Under the pieces are notes generated by a model. It did no database searches, was not told the DNA's origin, and saw nothing but the letters and a program-made list of their open reading frames with translations. Made by a program: the position numbers and the translations under genes. Source: Candidatus Nomurabacteria bacterium (GTDB lineage: Bacteria > Patescibacteriota > Minisyncoccia > Phycocordibacterales > JAACPR01). Taken from it: a stretch of 64,000 nt of DNA. Positions 9,631 to 44,829 of this stretch are shown here, one piece after another. The stretch spans positions 8,701 to 72,700 of the forward strand of contig JACKFZ010000002.1 in the NCBI GenBank assembly GCA_020632215.1, in the 5' to 3' direction. The first letter of the stretch is position 1. Every line of letters starts with the position of its first letter.

Positions 9631-9760
9631 GATTAGTCAATAGTAAATAGTTAATAGTTAATAGTCAAACTAAGTTAGCGGATAATAGTCAGCCATCAGT
9701 TTAATATTAAAAAGTAATTTATGACCTCTCGATACCGACCGCTGATAGTTGATCACTTTT

Positions 9761-11077
9761 TTATCGGCTTCTTCTTTTTTTCTTTTTAGCCACTTTCTCT
9801 GTTTCAATCTTGACCATCTGCTCCAATCTCCTAATGTCTGCAAGTAATTTTGGTCGATCTTTGTTAACCATAATTACATTGAAGACACTTTTGCCTCCAT
9901 TTTTAGCATATGTAGCTTTATCACCAATTTTCTTATTTTGCATCAAAGTATGCATGGATTTTAACTCCTGTGCCTTCTTCAAACCTTTAATATTTTTGAT
10001 AATGCCTTCTTCTTTGGCAAAGAATTTTAGAAAAGCAGAATGAGCTTTGATTTTTCGCGGAATTTTTGGAGTCTTTGGAATAGTAATATCTACAGAGTTG
10101 GCTAAATGCTTGATGCCGTAAGACAATTCGTATAGTTCCGCTCGATAACCTCCAACTCTCGCCCCAATCTCAACAATGAACCATTCTTTATCTCTCTTTA
10201 GTAGCTCCGCATGAAAAGGTATGCTTCTCAGACCTAGTGCACGGACACCTTTTTCTGCAACTTCTTCTGCATCTCTAATGGTTTCTTTGCTTAAATTAGT
10301 TGGTGTGATTTGTTGATATCCAAAAAAGTCATCAAACCCTATCTGCTTGCCAGTTTTTATTGCCATCATTGGGCAAAAATAGATCATACCTCTAGAGTTT
10401 ATATATCCATCAATCGAATACATTTCTCCTTCTATAAACTGTTCGACTAATACTTCTGGATCATTCCTTTGTCCACCTGCATCTTTATAAATAGCTTTTA
10501 TCTTTCGGAAAACTTGAGAAAGATTTTTTTCCAACTCCTCTCTATGAAAAACAACACTAACCAATAAACTTTGTGCTAGGCCAGAAGGCTTTATCACCAA
10601 AGGAAATTGAATCTTCTTTTCTATGGCAGATAAAGTCGTTTTCTTTTTATCCTTAACAAGCATAAATTTTGGAGTAATTTTTTTGTCATATGCAGAAAAC
10701 TTTCTTCTCATTTGATACTTATTAGTAGACCAAAGCAATGAATCCGTAGTAGGTGTTCGAAGATATGGAATATGTGGCACCACTTTTCTAAAATTCAAGA
10801 TCTGAGATTCAATTCTGCAAAAAGCAGCGGCTAGTTGATCTTGAAAAGGTTTGATTGCATTAAAAATAGAGTCGGAAGAATCATAGTTGCAAGAGACAAC
10901 ATGGTCAAATTTCTTCAAAACTGCTCGGTCTTCGCGACCAGCATTCTTTTGATCATACATCAACATAAACTTATAGGTACGTTGGTGACGCTCTTTAATT
11001 TGCTTCAAAACTTTTAATATCCCCTCTTGAGGAACATCGATAAGCAGTATGATATTTTTTTTCTTTTTTCTTGGCAT
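9761..11077 (-). CDS. ATP-grasp domain protein (carboxylate-amine ligase-like)
   Basis: Central PLVIKPSGLAQS...EQFIEGEMYSIDGY...FIVEIGARVGGY resembles the ATP-grasp ATP-binding and catalytic segments. Basic tails at both termini. Confidence 0.5.
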   Translation of the reverse strand: MPRKKKKNIILLIDVPQEGILKVLKQIKERHQRTYKFMLMYDQKNAGREDRAVLKKFDHVVSCNYDSSDSIFNAIKPFQDQLAAAFCRIESQILNFRKVVPHIPYLRTPTTDSLLWSTNKYQMRRKFSAYDKKITPKFMLVKDKKKTTLSAIEKKIQFPLVIKPSGLAQSLLVSVVFHREELEKNLSQVFRKIKAIYKDAGGQRNDPEVLVEQFIEGEMYSIDGYINSRGMIYFCPMMAIKTGKQIGFDDFFGYQQITPTNLSKETIRDAEEVAEKGVRALGLRSIPFHAELLKRDKEWFIVEIGARVGGYRAELYELSYGIKHLANSVDITIPKTPKIPRKIKAHSAFLKFFAKEEGIIKNIKGLKKAQELKSMHTLMQNKKIGDKATYAKNGGKSVFNVIMVNKDRPKLLADIRRLEQMVKIETEKVAKKKKRRSR

Positions 11078-11358
11078 TATTATTGAAATAATTAAAGGCT
11101 AGACCAACCCGAACCGCGTAGCAATTTTAGATTGGCATAAAAAAAGCTGCTCTCTAGAGCAGTTGCCAATATGATGCCTCCGCAAGATTCTTTTGTCAAT
11201 AGTATCTGTGGATGAATCCTTCATTTCTTTTTCATTAAAAAATCATATCTATGATATAATTCGGCCATGTCCGATGTATTTTAATCGGGCTTTAATTTTC
11301 TAAGTTATTTTTTAGAAAATTAGGCGTAAGCCTTTTATCATTAACCTCACAATATTTA

Positions 11359-11513
11359 TGTCAGACGACATGCAAAATGATGGTTCTTCAGTACCAATGG
11401 CGGACCAAAGTGGAGACATGCCACAACCAGACAGTGGTGAGGGGTCAGCAACTCCTGATACTGCTGCACCTTCAGAAGAAGGTAGCGATGCTTCTCCAGA
11501 AGCAGCAATGTAG
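11359..11513 (+). CDS. Small acidic low-complexity ORF (51 aa) upstream of infC; possible leader peptide
   Basis: The ATG..TAG ORF encodes MSDDMQNDGSSVPMADQSGDMPQPDSGEGSATPDTAAPSEEGSDASPEAAM. A hairpin with a T-run follows directly. No clear Shine-Dalgarno sequence. It is below the 60-aa cutoff of the ORF track. Confidence 0.2.
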
Positions 11514-11534
11514 TATCAAAGCATGCTTATAAGT

Positions 11535-11580
11535 CCCACGTGATCCGGCTAAACCGGACTTTACGTGGGGTTTTTATATT
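11535..11580 (+). terminator. Rho-independent terminator/attenuator hairpin preceding infC
   Basis: cccacgtgatccggctaaaccggactttacgtgggg followed by tttttatatt. Stem CCCACGT/ACGTGGG. Confidence 0.5.
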
Positions 11581-11662
11581 AAAAAAGTATTGAAAAATGA
11601 AGATTCTGTGATATATTCACTGGGCACAAATAATTCATTAGTTTTAACTAAACAAAGATAAA

Positions 11663-12196
11663 TTGAGAAATAATTTTAAGAAACAAGAACCAAAAACTCG
11701 CATCAACGAAATGATCAGAGCGGAGGTTCTTCGTGTTATTGGAGCAAATGGAGAAAATCTTGGTGAAATATCAAAAAAAGAGGCTCTAGAACAAGCTCGT
11801 GAAGCTGAACTAGACCTAATAGAAATCTCCCCGAATGCAACCCCGCCAGTTGCAAAAATAATGGATTATGGTAAGTTTCAGTACGACCAAAAGAAGAAGC
11901 AAAAGGTTCAAAAAGCCAAAGCCCACAACGTAGAAGTCAAAAGTGTCCAGGTCAAAGTTGGCACGGACGAAAATGATCTTTCTATAAAAGCTAAAAGAGT
12001 TTCTGTGTGGCTAAACGAAGGACATCGAGTCAAAATAGAGTTATTCTTACCAGGTAGAACTAAGTATCTGGAAAAAGATTTTCTAAATGATAGACTAAAT
12101 CGAATACTTAAACTTCTGACTGTGGAATTCAATGTTACAGAAGAAGCTAAGAAAAATCCAAAAGGCCTGTATACAATAATAGAAAGAAAAAGGTAA
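11663..12196 (+). CDS. infC: Translation initiation factor IF-3
   Basis: RINEMIRAEVLRVIGANGENLGEISKKEALEQAREAELDLIEISPNATPPVAKIMDYGKFQY is a typical IF-3 N-domain/linker. It is followed by rpmI and rplT, the conserved infC-rpmI-rplT order. Confidence 0.9.
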   Translation: MRNNFKKQEPKTRINEMIRAEVLRVIGANGENLGEISKKEALEQAREAELDLIEISPNATPPVAKIMDYGKFQYDQKKKQKVQKAKAHNVEVKSVQVKVGTDENDLSIKAKRVSVWLNEGHRVKIELFLPGRTKYLEKDFLNDRLNRILKLLTVEFNVTEEAKKNPKGLYTIIERKR

Positions 12197-12201
12197 TTAT
12201 T

Positions 12202-12387: not shown

Positions 12388-12424
12388 CTTTTAATTATCA
12401 ATTTTAAATTATTAATTACTTTAT

Positions 12425-12772: not shown

Positions 12773-12775
12773 AAA

Positions 12776-12812: not shown

Positions 12813-13387
12813 TCAAACACCTCCGTCAGATTAGTCAGATATGAGGTAAAAGTCTTTTCTAAATGAGGAAACATCTTTTCATATTCATCCTTATAAATGA
12901 CCAAATCCTCTTTTCCCTCTTTCAACCATTTATCGAGAGTATCAATGTGGACCCACTTCACCTTTTCTACCTCCTTTCCTATATTTTTTAAATCAGCATT
13001 GTCTATATCTTTTCTAACAAGAAAAACATCGCTGAACTCATTATTGATATAAGTATTATTATTCCTGGTTGTCTGTCTTTTTTCCTGAAATAAAAACCAA
13101 ACTTCATTTGGATCTAAAGTAATACCGATTTCTTCCTTAGCCTCTCTGATAACACAATCATTAACATTTTCTCCAGATTCAACATGTCCAGAAACCGATA
13201 AATCCCATTTGCCCTTATTACTTCTCAGCCAATCTGCCCTTTTTTGTAGCAACACCTCATTACTACTATTCACAATCCAAACATGAATAGATTTGTGCCA
13301 CAGACCCAAACCATGAACATCATCACGATTCCTAACTCCTCCTGTTAGATTACCCGTATTGTCTAAAATATCAATTAATTCACTCAT
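12800..13387 (-). CDS. NUDIX hydrolase
   Basis: Nudix box GHVESGENVNDCVIREAKEEIGI. Confidence 0.7.
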   Translation of the reverse strand: MSELIDILDNTGNLTGGVRNRDDVHGLGLWHKSIHVWIVNSSNEVLLQKRADWLRSNKGKWDLSVSGHVESGENVNDCVIREAKEEIGITLDPNEVWFLFQEKRQTTRNNNTYINNEFSDVFLVRKDIDNADLKNIGKEVEKVKWVHIDTLDKWLKEGKEDLVIYKDEYEKMFPHLEKTFTSYLTNLTEVFDSLK

Positions 13388-14748
13388 AGCTCGTAAGTCT
13401 GATTGATCTCTGGTACCACAGCATTAACATCTAGATTATCTCTAATCTTTTGTGCTAAAAACATAGAAGATTTTGGTTCTCCCATAACTACAAAAACTTT
13501 CTTGTATTGCTCAGCACCATGAGAAACAAACTCCAAAAGTCCATCAGAATCACAATGGGAAGAATATCCATCTATAGAAATTATTTCAGCATTTATATTT
13601 ACTTCTTCATTATTAATAAAAACTTTTTTCTGACCTTCTTTGATTTTTCTACCAAGAGTGCCCGCAACTTGGTAACCAATAACCAGCAAAGCATTTCTTC
13701 TGTTTGGTAATAATTTTTTCTCATGTTCTGTAATGCGTCCTCCCTCACTCATCCCAGAACCAGCGATCAAAACAAAAGGTGGTTTAGTATTATAAATATC
13801 TCTCGACTGGTCTGCCTTCAAAGTCATTGATAACTTTGGAAAATCAAATATATCATCACCACTTTTGATCTCTTTTTGAACATTGTCATTATAGTGACTC
13901 AGATATTTTGCATAGACACTAGTAATTTTTATACCCAATGGAGAATCTAAAAAAACTGGCACACTTTTGACTTGTCCACCCTCTATCAAATTATCAAGCT
14001 CGTGCAGCAACACCTGTGTTTTTTCTATTGAAAAAACAGGAATAACCATTACACCACCTCTATCGATAACCCTATTCAAGGCTACTTTTAGTTTCTCAGT
14101 CCTCATTTCTTTCTCTTCGTGGTTACGATCGCCATATACACTTTCAATCACCAGATAATCAGCATCAGTCACTTTTTCTGTATCTCTTAACAAAGGTGTT
14201 GGAGAATTTCCCAAATCACCCGTAAAAGCAATCTTTTTGCCAGAACTTTTATCAGTTATTTCAAAAATAGCAGATCCGAGAATATGCCCAGCATCTTTGG
14301 CAAAAATAGCAAAGCTACCAATGTCAAACACTTGATGATAATCAAGTGTTTGCCACAGAGACAAAGTCTTTTCTATATCTTTTTCGTCATAAAGAGGTTC
14401 TTTATTATTTCTCTTAGACTCAACACTAGAAATCTTCAGGGCATCTTCGAACATATATTTAGCAATATCTAAAGTTGGAGCAGTAGAAAATATTTTTCCT
14501 TTGAAACCGTCTTTCACTAACTTTCCTATTCTGCCTATATGATCAAGATGAGCGTGAGTAACTAATAGATAATCAATCTCAGCAGGATTATATTTAAAAT
14601 CTTCCCTGTTTGGATCCTTATCTCTAAAGTATCCTTGCACCAAACCACAATCAATCAAGATCTTGGTCATTGCATTTTCCAGAAGAAAATTAGCACCTGT
14701 TACCGTACCAACTCCACCAAAAAAAGTTAGTTTTAGTTTATTCGACAT
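13384..14748 (-). CDS. MBL-fold beta-CASP family RNA-metabolising metallo-hydrolase (CPSF/RNase J-like)
   Basis: HxHxDH motif VTHAHLDHIGRIG. The size of about 450 aa and the downstream D/H motifs match the beta-CASP architecture. Confidence 0.65.
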   Translation of the reverse strand: MSNKLKLTFFGGVGTVTGANFLLENAMTKILIDCGLVQGYFRDKDPNREDFKYNPAEIDYLLVTHAHLDHIGRIGKLVKDGFKGKIFSTAPTLDIAKYMFEDALKISSVESKRNNKEPLYDEKDIEKTLSLWQTLDYHQVFDIGSFAIFAKDAGHILGSAIFEITDKSSGKKIAFTGDLGNSPTPLLRDTEKVTDADYLVIESVYGDRNHEEKEMRTEKLKVALNRVIDRGGVMVIPVFSIEKTQVLLHELDNLIEGGQVKSVPVFLDSPLGIKITSVYAKYLSHYNDNVQKEIKSGDDIFDFPKLSMTLKADQSRDIYNTKPPFVLIAGSGMSEGGRITEHEKKLLPNRRNALLVIGYQVAGTLGRKIKEGQKKVFINNEEVNINAEIISIDGYSSHCDSDGLLEFVSHGAEQYKKVFVVMGEPKSSMFLAQKIRDNLDVNAVVPEINQTYEL

Positions 14749-18505: not shown

Positions 18506-19108
18506 CTACTCTAGTAACCCATCGAGGTTTACATCGTAAAGAATTTCTTCTTGTATCAATCTATACTTCAAAAGTTCCTCTTCGCTGAACCAATGTGGTA
18601 ATTCTTGATTTGCCTCTTCTACTGAACCTGAAGCATGTATAAGGTTTCTAACAGCTCTTTGATCTGTATCTGCCATTTGATATGAATCTAAGACAAAATC
18701 ACCTCTAATAGTTCCAACATCTGATGAAAGTGGCTCTGTTCCTCCCACAATCTTTCTAACAATACCCACAGAGTGTGCACCTTGCCATGCCATGACTACA
18801 ACTGGACCAGAAGCTATGTAGTTCACCAGAACATCAATAACCTTATCCCCTACTTCTTCAGGATTTTCTGATGGTGGTTGTTGTCCTTTTTTCTTATAAC
18901 TTTCAATAGCTTTTTCTCCCACTTTTTTCTTCCATTCTGGGTCTATAGAGTAATGAGCTCTAACATGATCTTCTGCTGGAACAATCATTTTCATTCCTAT
19001 AAGCTTTAAACCAACTCTCTCTAGCCTACCTATAATCTCCCCTATTAATGATCTTTGAACACCATCTGGCTTTATGATCACAAGTGTTTTTTCATCTTTA
19101 AAATCCAT
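18506..19108 (-). CDS. ndk: Nucleoside diphosphate kinase
   Basis: LVIIKPDGVQRSLIGEIIGRLERVGLKLIGMKM and the active-site region NLIHASGSVEEANQEL (NxxHGSD-type). It carries an internal insertion of about 50 aa relative to canonical 140-aa NDKs. Confidence 0.85.
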   Translation of the reverse strand: MDFKDEKTLVIIKPDGVQRSLIGEIIGRLERVGLKLIGMKMIVPAEDHVRAHYSIDPEWKKKVGEKAIESYKKKGQQPPSENPEEVGDKVIDVLVNYIASGPVVVMAWQGAHSVGIVRKIVGGTEPLSSDVGTIRGDFVLDSYQMADTDQRAVRNLIHASGSVEEANQELPHWFSEEELLKYRLIQEEILYDVNLDGLLE

Positions 19109-19282
19109 AACAATTTTTTATTAAATAAATTAAGTGCAAAAACTATATCAGATAATAGTAAATAGTAAATAGTAAATAGTAAGTAGTGCTCAGTTTCCAG
19201 GTGTCAAAAAACCGAAGTAGTTGTCATTCCCGCGGAGGCGGGAATCCCGTACAAACTTAGGTATTATTATTGCCACTTTTTT

Positions 19283-19567
19283 CTAATCAAATTGTATGAC
19301 AAAAAATCCTTTGTCTGCTAACTCTGGTTGCTGTTCTTTCCATTGCTTCCAATCAATCTTAGCAACATACCTTACTTGCTTTTCAATAAACCTTCCAGAT
19401 GGTTTTCTATCTTTTCCTTCTCCAACCCATTCTTCTAAACGTAAAATGTCCCCATCTTCAATCACGAAATCAGCCAACCGAAGCTCGAACTTCTTTTTGC
19501 CAGACAATATCATATCGAACCATTCTGTATCGATTTTTTTAGTAATAGTTTTCATAATGTGTATCAA
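19283..19567 (-). CDS. DUF3850/ASCH-like (PUA-fold) small protein
   Basis: TEWFDMILSGKKKFELRLADFVIEDGDILRLEEW matches the DUF3850 pattern (ExF..v..G.KtFElR.nDRdf.vGD.L.L.E). Confidence 0.5.
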   Translation of the reverse strand: MIHIMKTITKKIDTEWFDMILSGKKKFELRLADFVIEDGDILRLEEWVGEGKDRKPSGRFIEKQVRYVAKIDWKQWKEQQPELADKGFFVIQFD

Positions 19568-19814
19568 AGTATATCAAAAGTGCCTAAAGTTTCTCGGGAT
19601 TCCAGAACAATTCTGGAATGACAATAATCTTTCAAAGTCTAGAATTTGGTGCTTAGAATTTGTTTCGAATTTCGGATTTCGTACTTCGAATTTACACCTT
19701 TGTATTTTGTTATTTGTAATTTGCTTGGGATTTGCCTGCCCGCCGTAGCTTTGCTGTGCCATATGTAGCTTTAGCGAAGTATAGGCGTAGGAGGGGGATT
19801 TGTTTTTTTGAAAT

Positions 19815-20585
19815 CTATACTTTTGTGAGTATCTCTGGTCCATTCTCAGTCACCGCCACAGTGTGCTCAAACTGCGCCGCTATTGATCCGTCTTTAGTAA
19901 CAAAAGTAAAACCATCTCTAGCCAGCTTTATGTCGCCTCCTCCAAGTGAAAACATTGGTTCGATAGCAATGACTAAACCTTCTTCCATGACAACTCCTTC
20001 CCCTTTTCGTCCCTCATTAGGAACATATGGATCTTCATGAACAGCATAACCAACACCATGACCAGAAAGACCTTGTATGATACCAAAACCGTTGTCATGA
20101 GCCTGTTTTGCCACAGCAGAACCTATATCACCAATTTTATTACCAATACGAGCTTGCTTAACACCACTCGACAAAGCCTCTTTTGTTACTTGTAATAACC
20201 TCTTTGCTTCTAGAGAAATTTCTCCCACACCAATAGTAATAGCATGGTCCAAAAACATACCCTTATGAATCAAGCCACAATCTAGACCAACAATGTCGCC
20301 TTCTCGAATTTCTTTAGAATTAATAGCTGGCACACCATGAACAATTTCTTCATTTATCGAAACACAAAGAGTAGAAGGAAAACCTTTTTTTGTATTACTT
20401 GGTTTGTAGTCTAAAAAAGATGGCCTGTCTCCACCTTCAACTATTAGCTTGAAGGCAAGTTTGTCCAAATCTCCTGTCATTACGCCTGGCTTGCAAGCTT
20501 CAGCTATTTTCTGAAGTATCACGGCCAGTCTGCGACCACCTTCTCGCATTATCTCAATTTCTTCTTTTGTCTTTAGTTTTATCAT
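19815..20585 (-). CDS. map: Methionine aminopeptidase type I
   Basis: MIKLKTKEEIEIMREGGRRLA..., the HGIP-type metal-ligand regions, and a position downstream of secY. Confidence 0.9.
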   Translation of the reverse strand: MIKLKTKEEIEIMREGGRRLAVILQKIAEACKPGVMTGDLDKLAFKLIVEGGDRPSFLDYKPSNTKKGFPSTLCVSINEEIVHGVPAINSKEIREGDIVGLDCGLIHKGMFLDHAITIGVGEISLEAKRLLQVTKEALSSGVKQARIGNKIGDIGSAVAKQAHDNGFGIIQGLSGHGVGYAVHEDPYVPNEGRKGEGVVMEEGLVIAIEPMFSLGGGDIKLARDGFTFVTKDGSIAAQFEHTVAVTENGPEILTKV

Positions 20586-20587: not shown

Positions 20588-20670
20588 GATTAGTTAGTAG
20601 TAAATAGTAAATAGTTAGTAGAAAATTTCAAGTTTGGACCTATTTACTATTTACTATTTTCTAATACTCA
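20588..20670. repeat. Inverted-repeat element of TAGTAAA/TAGTTAG heptamer arrays (family A) between map and secY
   Basis: tagtagtaaatagtaaatagttagtag then an 18-nt spacer then cctatttactatttactatttt. This forms a long AT-rich hairpin. Confidence 0.8.
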
Positions 20671-21935
20671 CGCATTGAAACTTGCGCGTCTATTTTCTTT
20701 ATAAGATCAATCACAACAGATACAGCAATAAGCAGAGCTGTTCCTCCGATAGTTAGAGATGTGATACCAGAGAATCCTTGAACAATAATAGGCAGAACGG
20801 CGATGAAACCAAGAAATAAAGCCCCTACTAAAGTAATTCTAGTGATAACATTACCAATGTGTTTTGCTGTAGATTCACCAGGTCTAACACCAGGAATAAA
20901 GGCCCCGCTTCTTTGTAGATTCTTGGAAATAGTATCAGGATCAAATGTTACAGCTGTATAAAAGTATGTAAATAAGAATACTAAGACGAAGTATGCAATT
21001 CCATAATACAAAGTATTTTGAGTAACAGTGTTAATCCATCTCACTATTGTCTGCACAGTGTTGTTCTGAACAAAGACTAAGAAATTCGCAGCCATCTGTG
21101 GCAATAACAAAATAGACAGGGCAAAGATGATTGGAATAACTCCTGCTTGATTTACTCGTAAAGGCAAATATGTAGAAGTTCCTCCATATACTTTATCCCC
21201 TCTCATTTGTTTTGCGTAAGTAATAGGGATAGGTCTTTCAGCTTCTGTAATGATCACCACCCCAAAAATAATGATGAGGGCAACAATCAAAAATGCAATA
21301 TAGGTGGGAATCTGAGCAACATTGTAGTTCAACAGAACTTGTGATAGACCTTGTGGTAGCCCAGCCACGATACCTGAAAAGATGATCAGAGAAACTCCAT
21401 TACCAATACCAAATTCACTAATTAACTCTCCAATCCACATCAATAATAGTGATCCCGTTACAACAGCTACAATACTTGTAATCATTTGAAAATCAGAAAG
21501 ACCAGGAATAACACCTTGCTTTTGTAATAAAACGATAAAACTTACACCTTGAACAACAGCTAGAGGAACTGTTAAGTATCGAGAAAACATCATAAACTTT
21601 TTTCGTCCTGCTTCTCCTTCTTCATGATAGAGAGCCTTCAACTTATCTGACATCATAGTCAAAAGTTGCATGATAATAGACGATGTAATGTACGGAGCAA
21701 CTCCTAGCATCATTATAGAGATGTTAGACAATCCACCTCCAGAAAAAATATTCAAGAGACCGAAAAATTGATTACCTGAAAAGAATCTCTCTAATTGAAC
21801 ATGATCAACACCAGGGATAGGAATAGCAGCCAATAATCTAAAAACAAACAAAGCACCTAGAACAAAGAGGATTCTATTTCTCAACTTTTTATCTTTTAAA
21901 ATAAGTCTTAATTTTGAGATGAATGCATCAAACAT
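20661..21935 (-). CDS. secY: Preprotein translocase subunit SecY
   Basis: 424 aa with 10 TM helices. Typical SecY N-terminus (RNRILFVLGALFVFRL) and position after rplO. Confidence 0.9.
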   Translation of the reverse strand: MFDAFISKLRLILKDKKLRNRILFVLGALFVFRLLAAIPIPGVDHVQLERFFSGNQFFGLLNIFSGGGLSNISIMMLGVAPYITSSIIMQLLTMMSDKLKALYHEEGEAGRKKFMMFSRYLTVPLAVVQGVSFIVLLQKQGVIPGLSDFQMITSIVAVVTGSLLLMWIGELISEFGIGNGVSLIIFSGIVAGLPQGLSQVLLNYNVAQIPTYIAFLIVALIIIFGVVIITEAERPIPITYAKQMRGDKVYGGTSTYLPLRVNQAGVIPIIFALSILLLPQMAANFLVFVQNNTVQTIVRWINTVTQNTLYYGIAYFVLVFLFTYFYTAVTFDPDTISKNLQRSGAFIPGVRPGESTAKHIGNVITRITLVGALFLGFIAVLPIIVQGFSGITSLTIGGTALLIAVSVVIDLIKKIDAQVSMREY

Positions 21936-29300: not shown

Positions 29301-29376
29301 CATAAAAAATATACAAAGCTCCAATGGAGCTTGGTGGCTGTATATACTAACAGATATCGTTTTAAAGTCAACAAAT

Positions 29377-29495
29377 TAGTTAGTAGTAAATAGTAAATAG
29401 TTAGTAGACTTATTAGATTGATTCTTAGCCGTATATTTTACTCTTTCTTTCTCAATGAACCACTCCTATTTACTACTTACTATTAACTATTACCT
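29377..29495. repeat. Family A heptamer inverted-repeat element between rpsS and the M16 peptidase gene
   Basis: ttagttagtagtaaatagtaaatagttagtag ... ctatttactacttactattaactat. Confidence 0.8.
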
Positions 29496-31263: not shown

Positions 31264-31420
31264 AATTATTTAGTATACCTAAAGTTGCTCGGGATCCCCA
31301 GAACCAGAACAAAGTTCGGTTCTGGGCTTCGCCAGATTCACACTCCTCTAGGAAGACGTGGTAATAAAGTTTTAATATTTAAAATTTGTTTCGGATTTCG
31401 TGCTTCGAATTTCGGATTTC

Positions 31421-34162: not shown

Positions 34163-34582
34163 TTAAACCATCTTCACATCTATGTTGACACCGGACGGAA
34201 GACTTAGGTTTGTTAGTGCCTCGATGACTTTAGCATCAGGATTAATAATGTCAATTAACCTTTTATGTATTCGCATTTCAAACTGCTCTCGTGCATCTTC
34301 ATAGATGAAAGTTGAACGGTTAACTGTATACTTCTTTATTTCTGTAGGAAGCGGGATAGGACCACTAATCTTTGCATCAAATCTCAAAGCTGTGTCAATA
34401 ATTTGTTTCACTGATGAATCCAGGATCTTGTGCTCATAAGCTCTGATCCTTATTCTCAACTTAGAAACAATTTCTGAGTCAGTTTTTGGTTTTGATTTTG
34501 CGGCAGTTTTCGAAACAGCTTTAGTAGTCTTTGTTGCCAACTCCTTTTTTGTATTACTTTTTGTTGCTTTTGTTTCAGCCAT
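34163..34582 (-). CDS. rpsJ: 30S ribosomal protein S10 with about 40-aa K/T-rich N-terminal extension
   Basis: ...KLRIRIRAYEHKILDSSVKQIIDTALRFDAKISGPIPLPTEIKKYTVNRS... Confidence 0.9.
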   Translation of the reverse strand: MAETKATKSNTKKELATKTTKAVSKTAAKSKPKTDSEIVSKLRIRIRAYEHKILDSSVKQIIDTALRFDAKISGPIPLPTEIKKYTVNRSTFIYEDAREQFEMRIHKRLIDIINPDAKVIEALTNLSLPSGVNIDVKMV

Positions 34583-34587
34583 ATTTT

Positions 34588-34668
34588 TTAGTATATAGAA
34601 TGTAGTATTTAGTATGTAGTATGATTTTACTCTTCTACATTCTAAATTCTACATACTACATTCTTTCC
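34588..34668. repeat. Inverted-repeat element of TAGTATG/TAGAATG/TAGTATT heptamers (family B) between rpsJ and tuf
   Basis: tagtatatagaatgtagtatttagtatgtagtatg ... ctacattctaaattctacatactacattc. Confidence 0.8.
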
Positions 34669-35871: not shown

Positions 35872-35911
35872 AATTTTTTAATTAAAAGTTAATAATTAAT
35901 AATTTAAAGTT

Positions 35912-36040
35912 AAAATCCGAAATTCGAATCTCGAAATACGAAACAAATTTTAATTTCTAAATCCTAAATTAAAAACATTTATTTAGAATTTAAGGTTTAG
36001 ATATTGTTTCGGATTTCGGATTTCGTGCTTCGAATTTCAA
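35912..36040. promoter_or_regulatory. Inverted pair of the recurrent motif TTTCGGATTTCGTGCTTCGAATTTC (family D) upstream of tuf
   Basis: aaaatccgaaattcgaatctcgaaatacgaaacaaa at 35912..35950, and gtttcggatttcggatttcgtgcttcgaatttc at 36005..36040. The same motif occurs at 19661..19700, 31385..31420, 60158..60185 (reverse) and 60216..60250. Confidence 0.6.
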
Positions 36041-36719: not shown

Positions 36720-37205
36720 TTATTTCAACTCTACAGTAGCACCAGCTTCTTCTAACTTCTTCTTCATTTCTTCTGCTTCTTCTTTCTTCACTCCTGCCTT
36801 TACATCTCCAGGAGCACCATCAACGATATCTTTAGCTTCCTTTAGTCCAAGACCAAGCACTTCCTTGATAACCTTGATGACAGCAATCTTTTGAGCCCCA
36901 GCATCCTTTAGATGAACTGTAAACTCACTTTGTTCATCACCAGCACCCGCATCACCACCTGCTGCAGGAGCGGCGGCAACAGCTACAGCTGAAACACCAA
37001 ATTTCTTTTCTAACAATTTCACAAGTTCGTTTAATTCAAGAACACTCATTGATTCTATTTGTTCAACAAGAGTCTTGAACTTTGCTGGAACTTCTACGTT
37101 TTCCCCGTTATCGTCAGATTTTACAGGATCAGCACCTTCGTCAGCTTTAACTTCTTCAGCAGGAGCTTCTGTATTTTCAGCAATTTTATTTTCTTCGTCT
37201 GTCAT
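36720..37205 (-). CDS. rplL: 50S ribosomal protein L7/L12 with about 40-aa acidic N-terminal extension
   Basis: ...[31 protein letters not shown]... then the C-terminal domain [27 protein letters not shown]...[10 protein letters not shown]. Confidence 0.9.
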
Positions 37206-37209: not shown

Positions 37210-37298
37210 TTAGTTAGTAGTTAGTAGTAAATAGTAAGTAGTTTTAGTAAATAAAAAATTAGATTCTATTTACTATTTAGTATTTACTATTTACTGAT
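37210..37298. repeat. Family A heptamer inverted-repeat element between rplL and rplJ
   Basis: ttagttagtagttagtagtaaatagtaagtag ... ctatttactatttagtatttactatttact. Confidence 0.8.
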
Positions 37299-37300
37299 TA

Positions 37301-37789
37301 TTAAGCTTCTTTTGTATCTGCATAGGCTTTTACAACCATAGCAAAACCTTGAATTGGTGAGTTGATAACATTCACAAACATACCGAGCAATGTTTCTCTA
37401 GAAGGAATCTGAGCAATTTCTTCAATCCCATTCTTATCTAGAAACTTTCCTTCAAAAACTCCTCCCAACATCTGGATGTTGTCTGAAAATTGTTTCTGGA
37501 ATTTGAAAATCTCTCTCGCTGGAGCTATTAAGTCATCAGCATAAACCAAGGCCAACTCTCCATCCAAACTCGGAAGCTCTCCTTCAATAGAAGAGTCTTC
37601 AAAAGCTTTTCGGATTAGAGTTTTTCTTGCAACAAAATATGATACATCTGCTTTTCGAAGTTCATTCCTCATCGCAGCTGTCTCAGATACAGGCAAACCA
37701 TGAAAATTCACAAAGACTATGGAATCTTTTTTGGTTACATCCCTTAACTTGTCCAAGATTTCTTTTTTCTTATCTTTTGTAACTGCCAT
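37301..37789 (-). CDS. rplJ: 50S ribosomal protein L10
   Basis: MAVTKDKKKEILDKLRDVTKKDSIVFVNFHGLPVSETAAMRNELRK... Confidence 0.9.
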   Translation of the reverse strand: MAVTKDKKKEILDKLRDVTKKDSIVFVNFHGLPVSETAAMRNELRKADVSYFVARKTLIRKAFEDSSIEGELPSLDGELALVYADDLIAPAREIFKFQKQFSDNIQMLGGVFEGKFLDKNGIEEIAQIPSRETLLGMFVNVINSPIQGFAMVVKAYADTKEA

Positions 37790-37794: not shown

Positions 37795-37885
37795 TTGATT
37801 AGTAAATAGTAAGTAGTAAATAGTAAGTAGCTTTAGTAAATAAAATTAGATTCTATTTACTATGTTAGTATTTACTATTTACTAG
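37795..37885. repeat. Family A heptamer inverted-repeat element upstream of rplJ
   Basis: tgattagtaaatagtaagtagtaaatagtaagtag ... ctatttactatgttagtatttactatttactag. Confidence 0.8.
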
Positions 37886-37963
37886 TTTTCCGACCAGATA
37901 AGGCCGGAAATGAGAAAGCGTACCTATATTACGCAAAACCTCGAGAGGTCTTAAATAGTATGT

Positions 37964-38030
37964 AGAATGTAGTATTTAGTATGTAGAGTTGGTTATCCTT
38001 TCTCTGCATTCTAAATCTACCTACCACATC
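37964..38030. repeat. Family B heptamer inverted-repeat element upstream of rplJ
   Basis: tagtatgtagaatgtagtatttagtatgtagag ... gcattctaaatctacctaccacatc. Confidence 0.7.
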
Positions 38031-38096
38031 CTCATCGCCTCTTGTCTTTGGCCTTATGGATGTATAGATTACCGTTTTTTACAAAAAAGTCAACAT

Positions 38097-39281
38097 CTAC
38101 TCTTCTATTGAAAAATCAACTATTTCTTTGAAGCCACCAGGAAAAGTTACCTCCATTTCATAAGTCCCTTCTGACACATCATCAACAAGAGTAAAGTAAG
38201 CATTGTATGACTTAGCCTGACCAGCATATATCACATCATCTAAATTAAAATAATCATTACAAATTCCCACATCTTCCAAACCATCAACGTCCAGTTTAAT
38301 GGCTTCACAAGAATCTAGATTATCAACAATACTACTAGAAGTGTTGTTTGCAATTGTTCCAGAAACAATTATTGTTTCTCCTGGCTTAAAAATTTCTTTG
38401 TTCAAAGTAACCTTAGTTGTCACACTTTCTTCTAAAACAGTATCTGCATCATTACTGATTTTAAAGTCAATATAAGCTTTGTTATTTCCTGGGAAAATAA
38501 CTGTTAGTTTATACTTTCCTTCTGCTATTCGTTCTGGTTGTTCTGGAACAAGTTCTACCTTATAAGTGGCTGATTCTCCATTTCTTAGAGTAATAACAGT
38601 TTCGTAAGTATAGCAAGGAAAAGGACCTTGAATGTAACCATAGTACGGTTTGTTAATATCGACAGTCATCCCCGTACAATTGGATACTGGACCTTCTATA
38701 TCTACCCCGGAATTATTTGTAATTTTACCTGTTATTAATATTCTTTCATTAGCTTCGTACTCATCTTTATTAGTATCTAAATACAAACTAATGCCTCCAT
38801 TGTTACTAGTTGATGAATTATAAAATGAACTGCTTGAGTTAGAGCCACAAGAAGTATTTATGAATGATAAAGTTCTGGGACCGACTACTCCAAAACCAGT
38901 TGTATTAGCGTCACCAGAAGAGACAATACCTCGTGATGCTTGGAATCTTTTAACGGAGTCGACAGTTACGCTTCCATAATATCCAGTAATTTCAGGGTAG
39001 GTAAAAAAACCTCTATCTCTGAGATATCTTTGCAAAGCGGAGACTTGGCCAGCAGTAGAAAAATCATTGTCACCAATATACATAGTTCTGTTGAAGATTG
39101 CACAAGACTGCCCCGAACCACTTGAGTTTGAAGTGGTGCTACCAGTTTCTAATTGACCCAATTGTTGCCTGATTCTCAATAAAGCTTGTTCAATAGTTTC
39201 CAAACTTTGAGCTTGGGCTACAGAAAAACCAGTAATGAGTAAGAAGGTTAATAATATTGATGCTAGTACTTTTTTTCTCAT
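38097..39281 (-). CDS. Secreted protein with peptidoglycan-binding (PG_binding_1-like) domain and two Ig-like repeats
   Basis: Signal peptide. GQVSALQRYLRDRGFFTYPEITGYYGSVTVDSVKRFQASRGI resembles the PG-binding three-helix domain. Two related C-terminal beta domains. Confidence 0.55.
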   Translation of the reverse strand: MRKKVLASILLTFLLITGFSVAQAQSLETIEQALLRIRQQLGQLETGSTTSNSSGSGQSCAIFNRTMYIGDNDFSTAGQVSALQRYLRDRGFFTYPEITGYYGSVTVDSVKRFQASRGIVSSGDANTTGFGVVGPRTLSFINTSCGSNSSSSFYNSSTSNNGGISLYLDTNKDEYEANERILITGKITNNSGVDIEGPVSNCTGMTVDINKPYYGYIQGPFPCYTYETVITLRNGESATYKVELVPEQPERIAEGKYKLTVIFPGNNKAYIDFKISNDADTVLEESVTTKVTLNKEIFKPGETIIVSGTIANNTSSSIVDNLDSCEAIKLDVDGLEDVGICNDYFNLDDVIYAGQAKSYNAYFTLVDDVSEGTYEMEVTFPGGFKEIVDFSIEE

Positions 39282-40090
39282 TGATTATTTTCTATATAAG
39301 ATTGATCTGATATTGTGCTAAGTTTTCTAACAAACATTATTATACCTAAACTAAAGAGAAAACCTGCAATTGAAAACAAAACATCCGAAATATCACCTTG
39401 CCAGTAAACTTCCGCTGTCTCTCGAAAAGCAAAAACTAGGTCAGCAGCAACCATAACGATCAGACCTAGATTATAGATAAAAAGACCAGAAAAAATCTTT
39501 CCCCCAGCCACAGTCAAGATAATAATAGACATGACTATCAGTATAAGGTCTGAGACAGAGTAGAAGAAATTAAAAAATGTCTCATTCAAACCTACTCCAT
39601 CTTCTCCACCCCACATTGGCACACCAACTAATTGGATAACAATATAGCCAACAATTAATAAAAACACAATAGCAGTAATAATTTTTCTGGCGTTAATACT
39701 ACTTTTGAAAATTTTGAAAAAATAGAAAAAAGCAATGATGTTAAAAATAGTATAAAGCAACCATAAATAGTCAGCGAAAGAAGGAAAAGGTAAATCATTA
39801 TCTAAGAAGATTGCATAGTATGCCCAAACTAAAAAACCAAATCCTAAAAATAAAGTAGAGATACTGGCAAACAACAAGCCTTTCGATTGAGCATTACTGA
39901 TACTCATCCTCTTGATTCCACGAAAGCCAAAAAATGATCCGTAGAGCATCACTAGAGCCATGACAGGCACGACCCATCTGTTAAAAGCCGTCTCATACCC
40001 ACTGTAAGTGATATTTAAAAATAGATGATATCCAAGTAGTAAGACAAAAATGATAACTAGATGAGTAGTAGCCTTTTTATAATTCATCAT
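39278..40090 (-). CDS. Polytopic membrane protein, hypothetical
   Basis: 270 aa with about 8 TM helices. It overlaps the downstream secreted-protein gene by 4 nt. Confidence 0.45.
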   Translation of the reverse strand: MMNYKKATTHLVIIFVLLLGYHLFLNITYSGYETAFNRWVVPVMALVMLYGSFFGFRGIKRMSISNAQSKGLLFASISTLFLGFGFLVWAYYAIFLDNDLPFPSFADYLWLLYTIFNIIAFFYFFKIFKSSINARKIITAIVFLLIVGYIVIQLVGVPMWGGEDGVGLNETFFNFFYSVSDLILIVMSIIILTVAGGKIFSGLFIYNLGLIVMVAADLVFAFRETAEVYWQGDISDVLFSIAGFLFSLGIIMFVRKLSTISDQSYIENNQ

Positions 40091-40183: not shown

Positions 40184-42331
40184 TTATCCTCTTTGAGCTT
40201 TAATAGTCTGAGCTACATTTGGTGGTACCACTTCGTAGTGATCAAATTCCATGGTTGCAGATCCACGACCTTCTGTCATAGATCGAAGTCTAGTCGTATA
40301 TCCAAACATTTCTGACAGTGGCACAAGAGCATGTACTGCTTGAACACCTGGCCCTCTATCTTCCATACCTTGGACTTGTCCTCTCTTTGAAGATAAGTCT
40401 CCGGTAATATCTCCAGTAAATTTATCTGGAACAACCACTTCAACCTTCATCACTGGTTCTAGTAGTACAGGCTGTGCTTTTTCTGCTGCTTCTTTGAAAG
40501 CAAATGTAGCAGCTAGTTTGAAAGCAATTTCACTTGAGTCCACTTCATGATATGAACCATCGAATAGTTCTGTTGAAACATCAACCATTCTATAACCAGC
40601 AACAATTCCTCTTTCCATTGCTTCCTTAACCCCTTTCTCAACAGCAGGAATAAATTCATTTGGAACAACACCTCCTTTAATATTGTTAATAAATTCCATT
40701 CCTTCACTCCTTTTAACATTCTTAGCAATTTTCTCGTCAGGATCTGTGCTCTTTTCTAGTGGTTTAATTCGAATCTTAACGTGACCATATTGTCCCTTAC
40801 CTCCTGATTGTTTGATATATTTATGTTCAGCTTCAGCTGGAATTTGAATTGTTTCTCGATAAGCGACTTGTGGTTGTCCAACATTAGCTTCAACATTAAA
40901 TTCTCTTTTCATACGATCAACAAGGACTTCTAGGTGTAATTCTCCCATACCCGAAATAATAGTTTCTAGTGTTTCATCATCAGTTGTAACCTTAAAAGTA
41001 GGATCTTCATCAGCAAGTTTTCTAAGAGCCATTCCCATTTTTTCTTGATCTGCTTTTGTCTTTGGTTCAATTCGTAGCGAAACAACTGGCTCTGCAAATT
41101 CAATCTTGTGAAGTTCAATAGCATGAGCTTCATCACAAAGAGTGTCAGAAGTATGAGTATCTTTCAGACCAACAGCTGCAGCAATTTCTCCAGCATAAAC
41201 TGTTTTTACTTCTTCTCTTTCATTGGCATGCATTCGTAGTATTCGTCCCAATCTCTCTTTGTTACCTGTTGATGCATTATAAACATATGAACCTGCTTCA
41301 ATTTTTCCAGAATAAACTCTGAAGTATGTAAGCTGTCCAACATAAGGATCAGTCTGAAGTTTAAAAGCAAGAGCAGAAAAAGGTTCTTCGTCTGAAGCTT
41401 TTCTGTCTATTTCTTCACTAGTTTTTGGATCAACACCAGTTATTGGTGGGATATCTATAGGAGATGGTAGATAGTCGACAACGGCGTCTAGTACTAATTG
41501 AACACCCACATTTTTCAAAGCAGAACCTGTAAATACAGGCACAACATCACCAGAAATAACAGCTTTTCTCAAAGTCTTTTTCAAATCTTCTAAAGCAATT
41601 TCCTTTCCTTCCAGAAAATCATTCATTTGAGCTTCATCATTTTCAACAATTTTTTCAATAAGCTCGCTTCTATATTTTTCTGCATCAGCCTTTAGTTCTT
41701 CTGGAATATCAATTTCAATAACGTCATTGCCCATATTCCCCTCAAACTTGTACCCTTTCATCCTTAGCAAATCTACTACTCCTTCATGATTACCTTCTTC
41801 CCCAATAGGTATCTGAGCCCTAACCGCATTCTTTGTTAGCCGATCCAAAATAGATTTGTATGATCTTTCAAAACTTGCTCCTGTTCGATCTAGTTTGTTA
41901 ATAAAACAAATTCTTGGAACTTTATATTTATCAGCTTGTCTCCAAACTGTTTCTGATTGTGGTTCAACACCAGCAACACCGTCAAAAACAACCACTCCTC
42001 CGTCTAGAACCTTGAGAGATCTTTCTACTTCTGCAGTAAAGTCAACGTGACCAGGTGTATCGATAATATTAAAACGATGTTTAAAATCTTGGTTGCCTTT
42101 CTCGTAAGTAGGAATCCAAAAAGCAGTTGTAGCAGCTGAAGTGATAGTAATACCTCTTTCTCTTTCTTGTTCCATCCAGTCCATAGTTGCCTCTCCCTCA
42201 TGAACCTCTCCAATTTTATGAGAAACACCAGTGTAGAACAAAACACGCTCTGTTGTTGTTGTTTTACCAGCATCAATATGTGCAATAATTCCAATATTGC
42301 GAACTTTTTCTAATGGATAATCTCTCGACAT
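40184..42331 (-). CDS. fusA: Elongation factor G
   Basis: [20 protein letters not shown]..., 715 aa. Confidence 0.95.
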
Positions 42332-42342
42332 AACTTCTGTAA

Positions 42343-42432
42343 ATTAATAGTTAATAATTAATAGTTAATAATTAATAGTTAATAATTAATAGTTAATAGT
42401 TAATACTTATCAATTATTAATTAAATAATAAA
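42343..42432. repeat. Tandem AT-rich 14-mer (agttaataattaat) array, a family A variant, upstream of fusA
   Basis: aattaatagttaataattaatagttaataattaatagttaataattaatagttaatagttaatac. Confidence 0.75.
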
Positions 42433-42485
42433 GCCCCAGGAGCACTGAAGTCCGTCCATCATAACAGAAAAGTGGGATTAGTAAA

Positions 42486-42575: not shown

Positions 42576-42616
42576 CTAGTGATCAGTGATTAATTTAAAC
42601 AATACTTATAATAGGA

Positions 42617-42979: not shown

Positions 42980-43069
42980 AAAATGTATACTATAAAAAAT
43001 ATGCTCAAATTACAATAATAAGAATGTTAAATCGCCTTTCACTAGTCACTAAAAACTGAAAACTAGAAA

Positions 43070-43519: not shown

Positions 43520-43524
43520 TAGGA

Positions 43525-43650
43525 GTTGTCAGATGTCAGAAAAAATTATAAAAAAATAGTAACTGTTGTCTAATGTCTGAAGTCTAGTGTCTGAAGTCTG
43601 AAGTCTGAAGTCTAGTGTCTGAAGTCTGAAGTCTAGTGTCTGATAACTGA
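43525..43650. repeat. Family C: tandem GTCTGAA/GTCTAGT heptamer array (about 11 units) with an upstream inverted copy
   Basis: ttgtcagatgtcag ... gtctgaagtctagtgtctgaagtctgaagtctgaagtctagtgtctgaagtctgaagtctagtgtctgat. Confidence 0.85.
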
Positions 43651-43654
43651 CTAA

Positions 43655-43840
43655 TTAAAGTCCTAAAATTCTCCTCTTTGCTTCCCTAACAACATTTTCA
43701 TCAAATGGTATCGCCATCAAAGCCATCTTTTCAATATGATCTTGTGTGGCCATTTCTTTACAAATCATTATGAGGCCTTCCACTTCTCTCTCATCAACAA
43801 TTCTTTGCTCTTCTACAATCAGAGAATCGTTTCTAAACAT
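43655..43840 (-). CDS. Small hypothetical ORF
   Basis: 61 aa. No features. Confidence 0.2.
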   Translation of the reverse strand: MFRNDSLIVEEQRIVDEREVEGLIMICKEMATQDHIEKMALMAIPFDENVVREAKRRILGL

Positions 43841-43906
43841 TTTTATATAATAACAAAAACCAGCACCCTATAGGTGCCAGTTTTTCACAAATAATAAAAT
43901 TGGAGA

Positions 43907-44377
43907 CTACCAAGCGAAGTGTGCAAATGCTTTATTTGCTTCTGCCATCTTGTGGGTATTTTCTCTCTTCTTAACTGCTTCACCTTCATTTTGACTAGCA
44001 GCAATAATTTCATCAGCTAGTTTGTAAACCATAGACTTTCCCTTTTTCGTATTTGCAGCAGCCTTGATCCAAGTCATAGCCAAGAAAAGTCTCCTCTCTG
44101 GTCTAACTTCCCGTGGGACTTGATAGTTAGCACCCCCAACTCGTCTTGATCTCACTTCCATTTGAGGAGCTGCATTTCTGAGAGCTTGATCAAAAACTTC
44201 TAAAGGATTTTCTACCTTTGCTTTTTTCTTTATTTCTTCAAAAGCGCCGTAGACAACTTTTCTAGCTGTCTCTTTCTTCCCCCCTTCCATAACGTGGTTA
44301 ATAAACTTCTCAACTTTTACTGAGTTGTACCTTATATCTGGCTTTACAATATTTCTATTTTTAACTGGTCTTCGCAT
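43907..44377 (-). CDS. rpsG: 30S ribosomal protein S7
   Basis: MRRPVKNRNIVKPDIRYNSVKVEKFINHVMEGGKK... Confidence 0.9.
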   Translation of the reverse strand: MRRPVKNRNIVKPDIRYNSVKVEKFINHVMEGGKKETARKVVYGAFEEIKKKAKVENPLEVFDQALRNAAPQMEVRSRRVGGANYQVPREVRPERRLFLAMTWIKAAANTKKGKSMVYKLADEIIAASQNEGEAVKKRENTHKMAEANKAFAHFAW

Positions 44378-44415
44378 GATTTTAGTTAATAGTTAGTAGG
44401 TGGTAGTTAATAGTG

Positions 44416-44829
44416 TTAATTTGATTTTGGTTTCTTAGCTCCATATCGACTTCTTCCCTTAGCTCGTTTTTGAACTCCTTCAGCATCCAAAACACCTCGA
44501 ACAACTGTATATCGAATGTTAACATCCTTTACTCTACCTCCTCGAAGCAATACTACTGAGTGTTCTTGTAGATTATGACCCATACCAGGAATATATGCTG
44601 TTACTTCCATACCATTTGTTAATCTAACCCTAGCAATTTTTCTAATAGCTGAGTTTGGTTTTCTAGGTGTCTTTGTTGTCACTTTTGTACATACACCTCT
44701 TTTAAAAGGAGAGTTATAGTAAGTAGGTCTATTTTTCAAAGTATTGAAACCACGTTGAAGAGCAACAGCCTTTGATTTCTTGGCTGTCCTTGTTCTGTTT
44801 TTTCTTACTAATTGATTGATTGTTGGCAT
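44416..44829 (-). CDS. rpsL: 30S ribosomal protein S12
   Basis: [25 protein letters not shown]...[17 protein letters not shown]. Confidence 0.95.

Follow-up and report, generated by a model that had tools for sequence, protein, structure and literature searches.

Start-directed heptanucleotide repeat arrays in a Candidatus Nomurabacteria genome with few Shine-Dalgarno motifs

We analysed a 64-kb stretch of DNA (the window) from a Candidatus Nomurabacteria bacterium (Parcubacteria/Paceibacteria, candidate phyla radiation (CPR)), which has 36% G+C and carries almost all of its genes on the minus strand; the encoded L10 and Map proteins match NCBI entries of this taxon with 100% identity. Here, we describe the arrays of TAGTAAA-like heptamers in this window, referred to as family A, and show that they are one sequence variant of lineage-specific heptanucleotide simple sequence repeat (SSR) arrays in the leaders and intercistronic spacers of a genome that is nearly free of Shine-Dalgarno (SD) motifs.

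Family A arrays and their relation to start codons

A sequence-only reading of the window had listed eight intergenic sites with such heptamers, and TAGTAAA, TAGTTAG, TAGTAAG or TAGTTAA units were found on the plus strand at all eight. A two-unit pattern (TAGTAAATAGTAAA, up to two mismatches) matched 31 times in the window against 1.79 matches expected, and none of 100 shuffles reached 31. Similarly, TAGT repeated at period 7 over at least three units gave eight arrays compared with 0.035 in shuffles, and Tandem Repeats Finder (TRF) reported period 7 at all eight sites. The arrays are head-to-tail 7-nt repeats longer than expected by chance, which places them in the class of heptamer repeats. 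In total, family A is a real, intergenic and non-random repeat family that had been wrongly described as uniformly palindromic.

Inverted head-to-head hairpins had been claimed for all sites, and this holds for four of them: 20588-20670, 29377-29495, 37210-37298 and 37795-37885 (fold z-scores of -3.1 to -4.5). These four inverted pairs were also detected by an independent repeat search and are among the longest inverted repeats in the whole window. The other four sites are not hairpins: 9632-9695 and 19151-19182 are single direct arrays, the 14-mer array before fusA (42343-42432) has no significant hairpin when its fold is compared with shuffles (z = 0.11), and no structure was predicted for the array before rpsG (44381-44420; fold energy 0 kcal/mol). 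The statement that the heptamers never occur inside open reading frames (ORFs) is correct for all arrays of at least three units, with one exception: secY ends on a TAG stop codon that belongs to the reverse arm at 20640-20663. A location at operon junctions was confirmed in part; the elements at 37210-37298 and 44381-44420 lie inside the rplJ-rplL and rpsL-rpsG operons, respectively.

A feature missed by the sequence-only reading is that the arrays are directed toward start codons. With upstream regions read in the sense of the gene, all nine start-proximal family A arrays in the window read NNNACTA toward the adjacent start codon (units TTTACTA, CTAACTA, TTAACTA, CTTACTA and TTGACTA), and in sister species both family A arrays that adjoin a known start codon do the same. 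Random orientation had been named as a sign that would speak against the family; the orientation is strict across these nine arrays. Moreover, five window arrays stop 3-10 nt before the ATG, as ...(T/C)TAACTAA-N2-9-ATG. The orientation toward start codons accounts for the strand bias of the units (35 TAGTAAA versus 16 TTTACTA), and the inverted layout between rpsS and the M16 peptidase gene arises because two forward arrays each face their own divergent gene. According to Pfam, the genes directly downstream encode an M29 aminopeptidase and an M16 peptidase or are ndk, map (after secY), rpsS, rplL, rplJ, fusA and rpsG; many of these are translation-machinery genes.

SD-like motifs (GGAG, GAGG or AGGA at positions -20 to -4) are present before only two of the 63 genes in the window, neither of which is led by an array. 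The most enriched 5-mer at positions -25 to -1 is ACTAA (6.6-fold, 13 of the 63 genes). In the relatives L005, L007, L128, L130 and L131 (L-numbers are labels of the strains, relatives and sister species compared with the window), ACTAA is found in the same interval before 11 of 65 genes compared with 1.7 expected, i.e. an enrichment of about 6-fold, and most of these 65 genes carry no arrays. A single ACTAA box is present in relatives at genes that are led by arrays in the window, i.e. rpsG (TAACTAAtacttaattcccATG in L005 and ACTAAttaaagtATG in L007) and rplL (ACTAAttATG in L007 and ACTAAaaatATG in L128), and also at rpsJ. Because ACTAA precedes the same genes in array-poor relatives, the arrays look like tandem expansions, generated by slippage, of an ancestral (T)AACTAA motif a few nucleotides before the start codon. 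ACTAA itself may serve this Paceibacteria clade as a motif for initiation without SD.

At three tail-to-head sites, i.e. secY-map, rplJ-rplL and rplJ leader-rplJ, the arrays form hairpins of the type described for short tandemly repeated repetitive (STRR) sequences (z-scores of -3.65 to -4.47); the fourth inverted pair lies between divergent genes. In all tail-to-head hairpins, the reverse arm comes first and the forward arm second. The 5' arm begins at or beside the upstream stop codon, and the TAG of secY, as well as the TAG of map in L130, is the first triplet of the array. In every fold, the last two to three forward units and the AUG are unpaired; in the rplJ-rplL forward arm, this amounts to the last ~20 nt. 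The stems contain 2-5 G-C pairs among 20-30 pairs and have no U run. The sense RNA folds less stably than the antisense RNA (e.g. -20.8 versus -30.4 kcal/mol), and the sense hairpin is shorter because start-proximal units carry C in place of U, so that C.A in the sense RNA corresponds to G.U in the antisense RNA. The weaker predicted sense fold is compatible with an initiation region that is kept open.

The rplJ-rplL spacer is 95 nt long in the window and 24-27 nt in relatives with L10 proteins that are 70-73% identical; the rpsL-rpsG spacer is 38 nt long compared with 12 nt in relatives. Both enlarged spacers consist almost wholly of family A units, and because they are inside operons, these two elements are expected to be transcribed. 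Upstream of rplJ, the window and three relatives share the invariant blocks ATAAGGCCAAAGACAAGAGGC ... TAAGnCCTCTCGAGGT ... GGCCTTA, with a -35/-10-like pair just upstream and a variable insert between the blocks (positions 9874-9968 in L005, 9806-9942 in L007 and 3322-3436 in L128). The hairpin at 37795-37885 lies between this conserved leader and the rplJ ATG; its position and the conservation of the leader place it within the 5' untranslated region (5' UTR). Rfam gave no match for the leader, L10_leader included, in the window or the relatives at the gathering threshold or with E up to 10, and no covariation was found in the leader, in which the paired blocks are invariant. It is probably an L10 autoregulatory leader. 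For the family A elements, Rfam had no family and returned only weak chance matches to microRNA hairpins.

Genes for uL11-uL1 (rplK-rplA) are absent upstream of rplJ, both in the window and in the relatives compared (L005, L007 and L128). Instead, rplJ is preceded by genes for a protein with a peptidoglycan-binding domain (38097-39281) and a protein without a Pfam domain (39278-40090). The anti-SD motif has been lost in about half of the Parcubacteria, and this group overlaps with the group that lacks uL1 (PMC9297842); within the rplJ neighbourhood, the absence of rplK-rplA fits with membership in this uL1-lacking, anti-SD-poor group.

Table 1. Positions of family A arrays and of the conserved rplJ leader in the window
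Feature	Position	Strand	Description
M29 aminopeptidase array	9634-9668	-	5 units, TTGACTA TTAACTA TTAACTA TTTACTA TTGACTA; ends 3 nt before ATG (gene 8410-9630)
ndk array	19156-19190	-	Single forward array, 5 units; 47 nt upstream of ndk ATG (18506-19108)
secY-map hairpin, forward arm	20591-20622	-	Start-proximal; ends CTAACTAATCAA before map ATG (19815-20585); z -4.47
secY-map hairpin, reverse arm	20640-20663	-	UAGAAAAUAGUAAAUAGUAAAUAG in mRNA; first TAG is the secY stop codon (20661-21935)
rpsS array	29377-29404	-	Forward to rpsS (28974-29324); directly upstream of promoter-like TTGACT, 16 nt, TG-TAGTAT
M16 peptidase array	29466-29492	+	Forward to divergent gene 29519-30784
rplJ-rplL hairpin, forward arm	37211-37245	-	Ends CTAACTACTAACTAATATT before rplL ATG (36720-37205); z -3.65
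rplJ-rplL hairpin, reverse arm	37266-37300	-	Begins right after rplJ stop codon (TAA, 37301-37303)
rplJ 5'-UTR hairpin, forward arm	37800-37830	-	Ends TTTACTAATCAAATCAA before rplJ ATG (37301-37789); z -3.97
rplJ 5'-UTR hairpin, reverse arm	37853-37887	-	Directly downstream of conserved rplJ leader
Conserved rplJ leader	37893-38062	-	Context, not family A; blocks ATAAGGCCAAAGACAAGAGGC and TAAGnCCTCTCGAGGT invariant in four genomes
fusA array	42342-42429	-	14-nt double unit ATTAACTATTAATT (gene sense), 6.2 copies; ~20 nt before fusA ATG (40184-42331)
rpsG array	44383-44417	-	Direct, fills the 38-nt rpsL-rpsG spacer; ends TTAACTAAAATC before rpsG ATG (43907-44377)

The array before the M29 aminopeptidase gene has no inverted partner; its distal unit is part of a distinct small hairpin upstream.

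Arrays in relatives and other heptamer families

In the sister species L127 (L10 84% identical), family A hairpins are present at both orthologous rplJ positions. The rplJ-rplL element is 86% identical between L127 and the window (a value discussed below), and the adjacent rplJ gene is 51% identical at third codon positions and 43% at four-fold sites. The arms of this element differ between the two species by one whole unit each, as expected for slippage. In the rplJ 5' UTR, the arms are TAGTTAG/CTAACTA in L127 (z = -4.8) and TAGTAAA/TTTACTA in the window, i.e. both arms have changed in a complementary manner. In L130 (Map 80% identical), a hairpin of another heptamer, TAGAATA/ATTCTAT, extends from the secY stop codon to the map start codon (z = -6.1), and a further family A hairpin starts with the map stop codon (z = -6.5). 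L131 (73% identical) has a plain secY-map spacer of 37 nt, and at the junctions compared, arrays were absent from relatives at 70-73% identity. Altogether, architecture and position persist; unit sequence and unit number turn over.

The two hairpin copies that flank rplJ are near-identical over ~70 nt, including the loop, and resemble each other more than the leader-rplJ copy resembles its L127 orthologue, which indicates copying or gene conversion. The homogenised rplJ-flanking copies lend indirect support to a role as recombination substrates, one of the options raised by the sequence-only reading.

Four strains (L001-L004) are 99.9-100% identical to the window; these are independent short-read assemblies of the same strain, and all four end at the same base (37269) within the rplJ-rplL element. 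Thus, the arrays break short-read assemblies, and they can mislead gene callers, which is worth knowing even if they are neutral. A metagenome scan for the conserved rplJ-rplL arm gave no match in the Joint Genome Institute (JGI) set, from which the species is seemingly absent. A scan of 185,579 species genomes with (TAGTAAA)2.4 identified at least 118 loci in many phyla, with arrays of 2-46 units when counted by a 5-of-7 match rule; among the matches listed, a few loci have inverted partners and there is no common context. TAGTAAA arrays in general are a sporadic, generic SSR class, and what is special in the window is their density and strict local orientation.

Family A is accompanied by further heptamers. 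The noncoding DNA of the window has autocorrelation peaks at lags of 7, 14, 21 and 28, and the coding DNA has period 3. TRF identified at least eight other heptamer units that form arrays in the window, so that several families share its intergenic DNA. Units of the TAGAATG/TAGTATG type together with CATTCTA/CATACTA form reverse-loop-forward hairpins upstream of rpsJ (34582-34664) and rpsL (44833-44921), and their forward arms also finish in ACTAA a few nucleotides before the ATG; this family is in addition inserted in the variable part of the rplJ leader (37956-38030). Upstream of tuf, there is a reverse-loop-forward hairpin of GAAATCC/TTTCGGA and a direct array of TTAATTA. Further arrays consist of GTCTGAA (direct), TTTAAAA, ATAATTA and TTCGTGC. 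Together with those upstream of tuf, these arrays of unrelated units are located at 35875-36038, 43568-43650, 6888-6921, 7927-7961, 12391-12418 and 60224-60241.

Several other features of the region were noted. Several genes are preceded by copies of a GC-rich hairpin with CCCGAGnAACTTTAGG after it, which is a small repeated intergenic element (19216-19262 on the plus strand, 19586-19632 and about 31270-31340 on the minus strand; 9640-9740 in L007). The plus-strand ORF at 19296-19748 (150 aa) has no Pfam match and contains heptamer arrays; the minus-strand ORF at 19283-19555 (MKTITKKIDTEWFD...) looks like the real gene there. A giant minus-strand ORF of 4785 aa (44985-59342) has an internal repeat of ~516 nt that is visible as evenly spaced shadow ORFs on the opposite strand. 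The gene at 7959-8333 encodes a "23S rRNA intervening sequence protein" (PF05635) and stands alone; no rRNA gene was detected in the window. Finally, two genes of L007 have no counterpart in the window: between the rplL region and tuf, L007 encodes a Y1 (IS200/IS605-type) transposase, and its rpsG and fusA genes are separated by a GIY-YIG gene (L007 positions 12900-13439 and 3463-3750).

Possible functions of the arrays

The interpretation that we favour, with confidence somewhat short of even, is that the arrays are part of the mRNA and have a role there in translation initiation or cistron coupling. The forward array, which is G-free and unstructured, would be a ribosome-loading region for SD-independent initiation; ribosomes would load either directly or with the help of S1, a cold-shock protein or another protein that binds single-stranded RNA. 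Where an upstream reverse-complement array is present (about half of the sites), this array, starting from the preceding stop codon or from the end of the rplJ leader, would pair with the distal forward units. The resulting AU-rich hairpin would loop out the spacer and bring the stop and start codons near each other, and might in addition lend stability to the downstream cistron or insulate it; the last two to three forward units and the AUG would remain single-stranded. Unit number and unit sequence would turn over by slippage and also by copying between sites. If a protein binds the arrays, its target is more likely RNA than DNA, given the strict orientation of the arrays toward start codons and their location in transcribed leaders. 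Binding of a HutP-like protein to UAG-N4 in the reverse arm was considered and dropped; other heptamer families share the architecture without the UAG spacing.

Several observations weigh against a function of the arrays in the mRNA. Most genes in the window initiate without any array, and the arrays are therefore not required for initiation. The initiation regions of array-led genes are not significantly more accessible than those of other genes (0.61 versus 0.50, p = 0.06, n = 5). The case for transcription through the elements is built on gene order and the conserved leader, and the arrays at 19156, 29377 and 29466, which are 26-52 nt from the start codon and at or upstream of promoter-like hexamers, may be outside the mRNA. 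The 86% identity of the rplJ-rplL element to its L127 counterpart is partly inflated by low-complexity periodic sequence. The complementary changes in both arms could stem from palindrome-perfecting template switching or gene conversion, and not from selection for RNA structure. Similarly, the absence of arrays at 70-73% identity together with the swap of the heptamer family at one junction also fits rapid neutral turnover. Finally, among the matches listed in the scan of species genomes, the orientation of TAGTAAA to nearby starts is mixed (31 versus 27).

The best-placed alternative, which we regard as unlikely but in no way negligible, is that the arrays are neutral SSRs: polymerase slippage, reported to favour 7-nt units, and template switching would make the arrays and palindromes, which would be tolerated in the G-poor leaders of an SD-less, AT-rich genome. 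In addition to the turnover and the mixed orientation across phyla, the period-7 autocorrelation extends across all noncoding DNA of the window and involves many unrelated heptamers, and the arms differ by whole units between species. Moreover, heptamers are the commonest long SSRs, for which polymerase slippage was proposed (Mrazek 2007, as summarised in PMC4679880). Neutrality does not readily explain that the start-directed orientation is strict and the ACTAA-N-ATG register fixed, that elements were kept at the same junctions in the sister species while synonymous sites became saturated, that pairing was preserved despite changes on both arms, or that a single ACTAA box is enriched ~6-fold before starts in relatives that are mostly array-free.

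We consider it improbable that the arrays function in the DNA, either as binding sites for a DNA-binding protein or as A/T-rich UP-element or -35-like promoter modules. A stretch of three units is 21 bp long, i.e. two helical turns, and TTGACT, TTTACT and TTAACT resemble the -35 hexamer. The ndk, rpsS and M16 peptidase arrays are at or just upstream of promoter-like hexamers. The ndk array, which follows a GC-rich hairpin with a U run, overlaps a possible -35 (TTTACT, 16 nt, TATAGT; inspection by eye), and the last unit of the M16 peptidase array gives a -35-like TTAACT, for which the second hexamer, TATAAT, stops 8 nt short of the ATG; TTAACT, 16 nt, TATAAT scores 10/12. The more stable hairpin would form on the strand antisense to the genes, and deletion of heptamer repeats in Nostoc altered the action of LexA and NtcA on a promoter (10.1101/2022.06.06.494920). 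However, promoter-like sites are not enriched in the region (55 versus 52.6), the rplJ copy follows a conserved leader that has a separate -35/-10 ahead of it, the copies before rplL and rpsG are within operons, and map, rplL and rpsG have no acceptable -10 at a leaderless distance from the ATG. A specific model in which (TTTACTA)n is the promoter, based on the 17-bp distance between TTTACT and TACTAT in such arrays (inspection by eye), was set aside on the same grounds, i.e. the lack of promoter-site enrichment and the transcribed positions of the rplJ, rplL, rpsG and map copies.

A stronger version of the translational interpretation, to which we assign a similarly low probability, is that ACUAA ~4 nt before the AUG is a genuine replacement for the SD signal in ribosome binding, that the arrays are multimerised copies of it, and that the reverse arm provides a shunt-like coupling of stop and start. 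ACUAA would then be read by an altered 3' tail of 16S rRNA (5'-UUAGU-3') or by a dedicated single-strand RNA-binding protein; the base of the hairpin would hold the upstream stop codon, and terminating ribosomes would be passed across the stem to the ACUAA array.

Still less probable is that the hairpins are small non-autonomous mobile elements, similar to miniature inverted-repeat transposable elements (MITEs) or REPINs (repetitive extragenic palindromic (REP) doublets forming hairpins), that insert at stop-start junctions with a transposase acting in trans. The near-identical ~70-nt copies flanking rplJ, an identical 33-nt arm at 20588 and 29375, the wholesale replacement of the secY-map element in L130, the breaks of short-read assemblies within an element and the Y1 transposase gene in the same gene cluster of L007 would all suit such elements. 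They are opposed by the lack of a transposase domain among the 40 window proteins scanned with Pfam, by loops that are unrelated between sites, by the half of the sites that are arrays without a partner, and by relatives in which the arrays grade into one ancestral ACTAA copy; no terminal repeats or target duplications can be told apart from the arrays.

Finally, the proposal of the sequence-only reading that the elements are AT-rich bidirectional terminators or attenuators is very improbable. In its favour, long hairpins do follow stop codons directly, the place of the family A hairpin in the rplJ leader is taken in L005 and L007 by a short GC-rich hairpin and a U run, and termination was suggested for a cyanobacterial STRR hairpin (PMC2670836). 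Against it, the stems consist almost entirely of A-U pairs and are not followed by a U tract, only four of the eight sites are hairpins at all, and one of these hairpins separates two divergent genes. In addition, two elements are inside operons, and termination ahead of rplL or of rpsG would leave essential genes untranscribed. Canonical sites with a G+C-rich stem and a U tract occur elsewhere in the window (17 versus 7.6 expected; e.g. 36699-36665 after rplL), and none of these 17 is a family A hairpin.

For the favoured interpretation, in which the arrays act on the mRNA, the main interest is the ACUAA box, which may offer a way into SD-independent initiation in Parcubacteria. This conserved box, which precedes core translation genes and in one lineage is amplified into heptamer arrays and hairpins, is a concrete and testable candidate for how start codons are chosen in CPR/Patescibacteria without SD/anti-SD pairing.

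Comparison with known repeats

The sequence-only reading knew of no described repeat class of this kind. Heptamer arrays have, in fact, been reported in Beggiatoaceae, cyanobacteria and Bacteroidetes, as have STRR hairpins and an experimentally characterised 5'-UTR SSR in Haemophilus, and family A is a local form of these already described heptamer repeats rather than a new type of element.

The closest counterpart in position is the TAACTGA family of direct repeats found in marine Beggiatoaceae, some cyanobacteria and Bacteroidetes, which are mostly forward, end ~1 nt before start codons that lack a ribosome-binding site (RBS), and occur in ribosomal protein operons (MacGregor 2015; PMC4679880). 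S1, Csp or CsrA were proposed as candidate binders (PMC4679880). Like these repeats, family A consists of tandem heptamers (2-6 copies) that are nearly all intergenic, with some overlapping the end of the upstream ORF, that are forward to the start codon and end a few nucleotides before it, and that are found without a canonical RBS and in ribosomal protein operons. The sequence is different: the closest family A register, TAACTAA, matches TAACTGA at 6 of 7 positions. Thus, judged from sequence and placement, family A arrays would act like the TAACTGA family without being members of it. Moreover, family A mixes several unit variants per array, its host is a CPR bacterium, and half of its sites have an inverted partner compared with only one inverted repeat among 170 TAACTGA sets. 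Several other heptamer families have the same architecture in the Nomurabacteria genome, whereas related heptamers are rare as repeats in the Beggiatoaceae genome.

In cyanobacteria, 7-bp STRR arrays form hairpins between hupS and hupL, for which stabilisation of the transcript or translational coupling was proposed (PMC2670836), and in Nostoc PCC 7120 expression is affected by heptamer repeats that lie close to start codons or promoters (10.1101/2022.06.06.494920). Family A shares with STRR sequences the 7-bp units, the presence of many families per genome, the intergenic location, the intercistronic hairpins and the overlap of some arrays with a start codon. It differs in phylum and units, and the Nomurabacteria arrays are short (3-6 units) and concentrated at translation-machinery genes. 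We know of no description of a strict orientation rule or an ACTAA-N-ATG register for STRR sequences.

The (ATCTTTC)n repeat of hmw1A and hmw2A in Haemophilus influenzae is transcribed and forms a 5'-UTR hairpin that is cut by RNase III (PMC12721329). As in family A, a heptamer SSR in the 5' UTR is one arm of a long hairpin, which in hmw controls expression post-transcriptionally. Unlike in family A, the partner arm in hmw is a non-repeat, G-rich segment. The hmw repeat is phase-variable between cells and processed by RNase III.

The REP elements, bacterial interspersed mosaic elements (BIMEs) and REPINs of proteobacteria are short intergenic palindromes that are present in many copies, are often intercistronic and are thought to stabilise the upstream mRNA. 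REP elements are GC-rich, are not tandem heptamers and are associated with REP-associated tyrosine transposases (RAYTs); neither the GC-richness nor the association with RAYTs is seen for family A in the window.

Altogether, if the Nomurabacteria arrays prove to affect initiation or the coupling of cistrons, this would also bear on the function of the heptamer repeats of cyanobacteria and Beggiatoaceae, a question that dates from 1990 and 2015, respectively.

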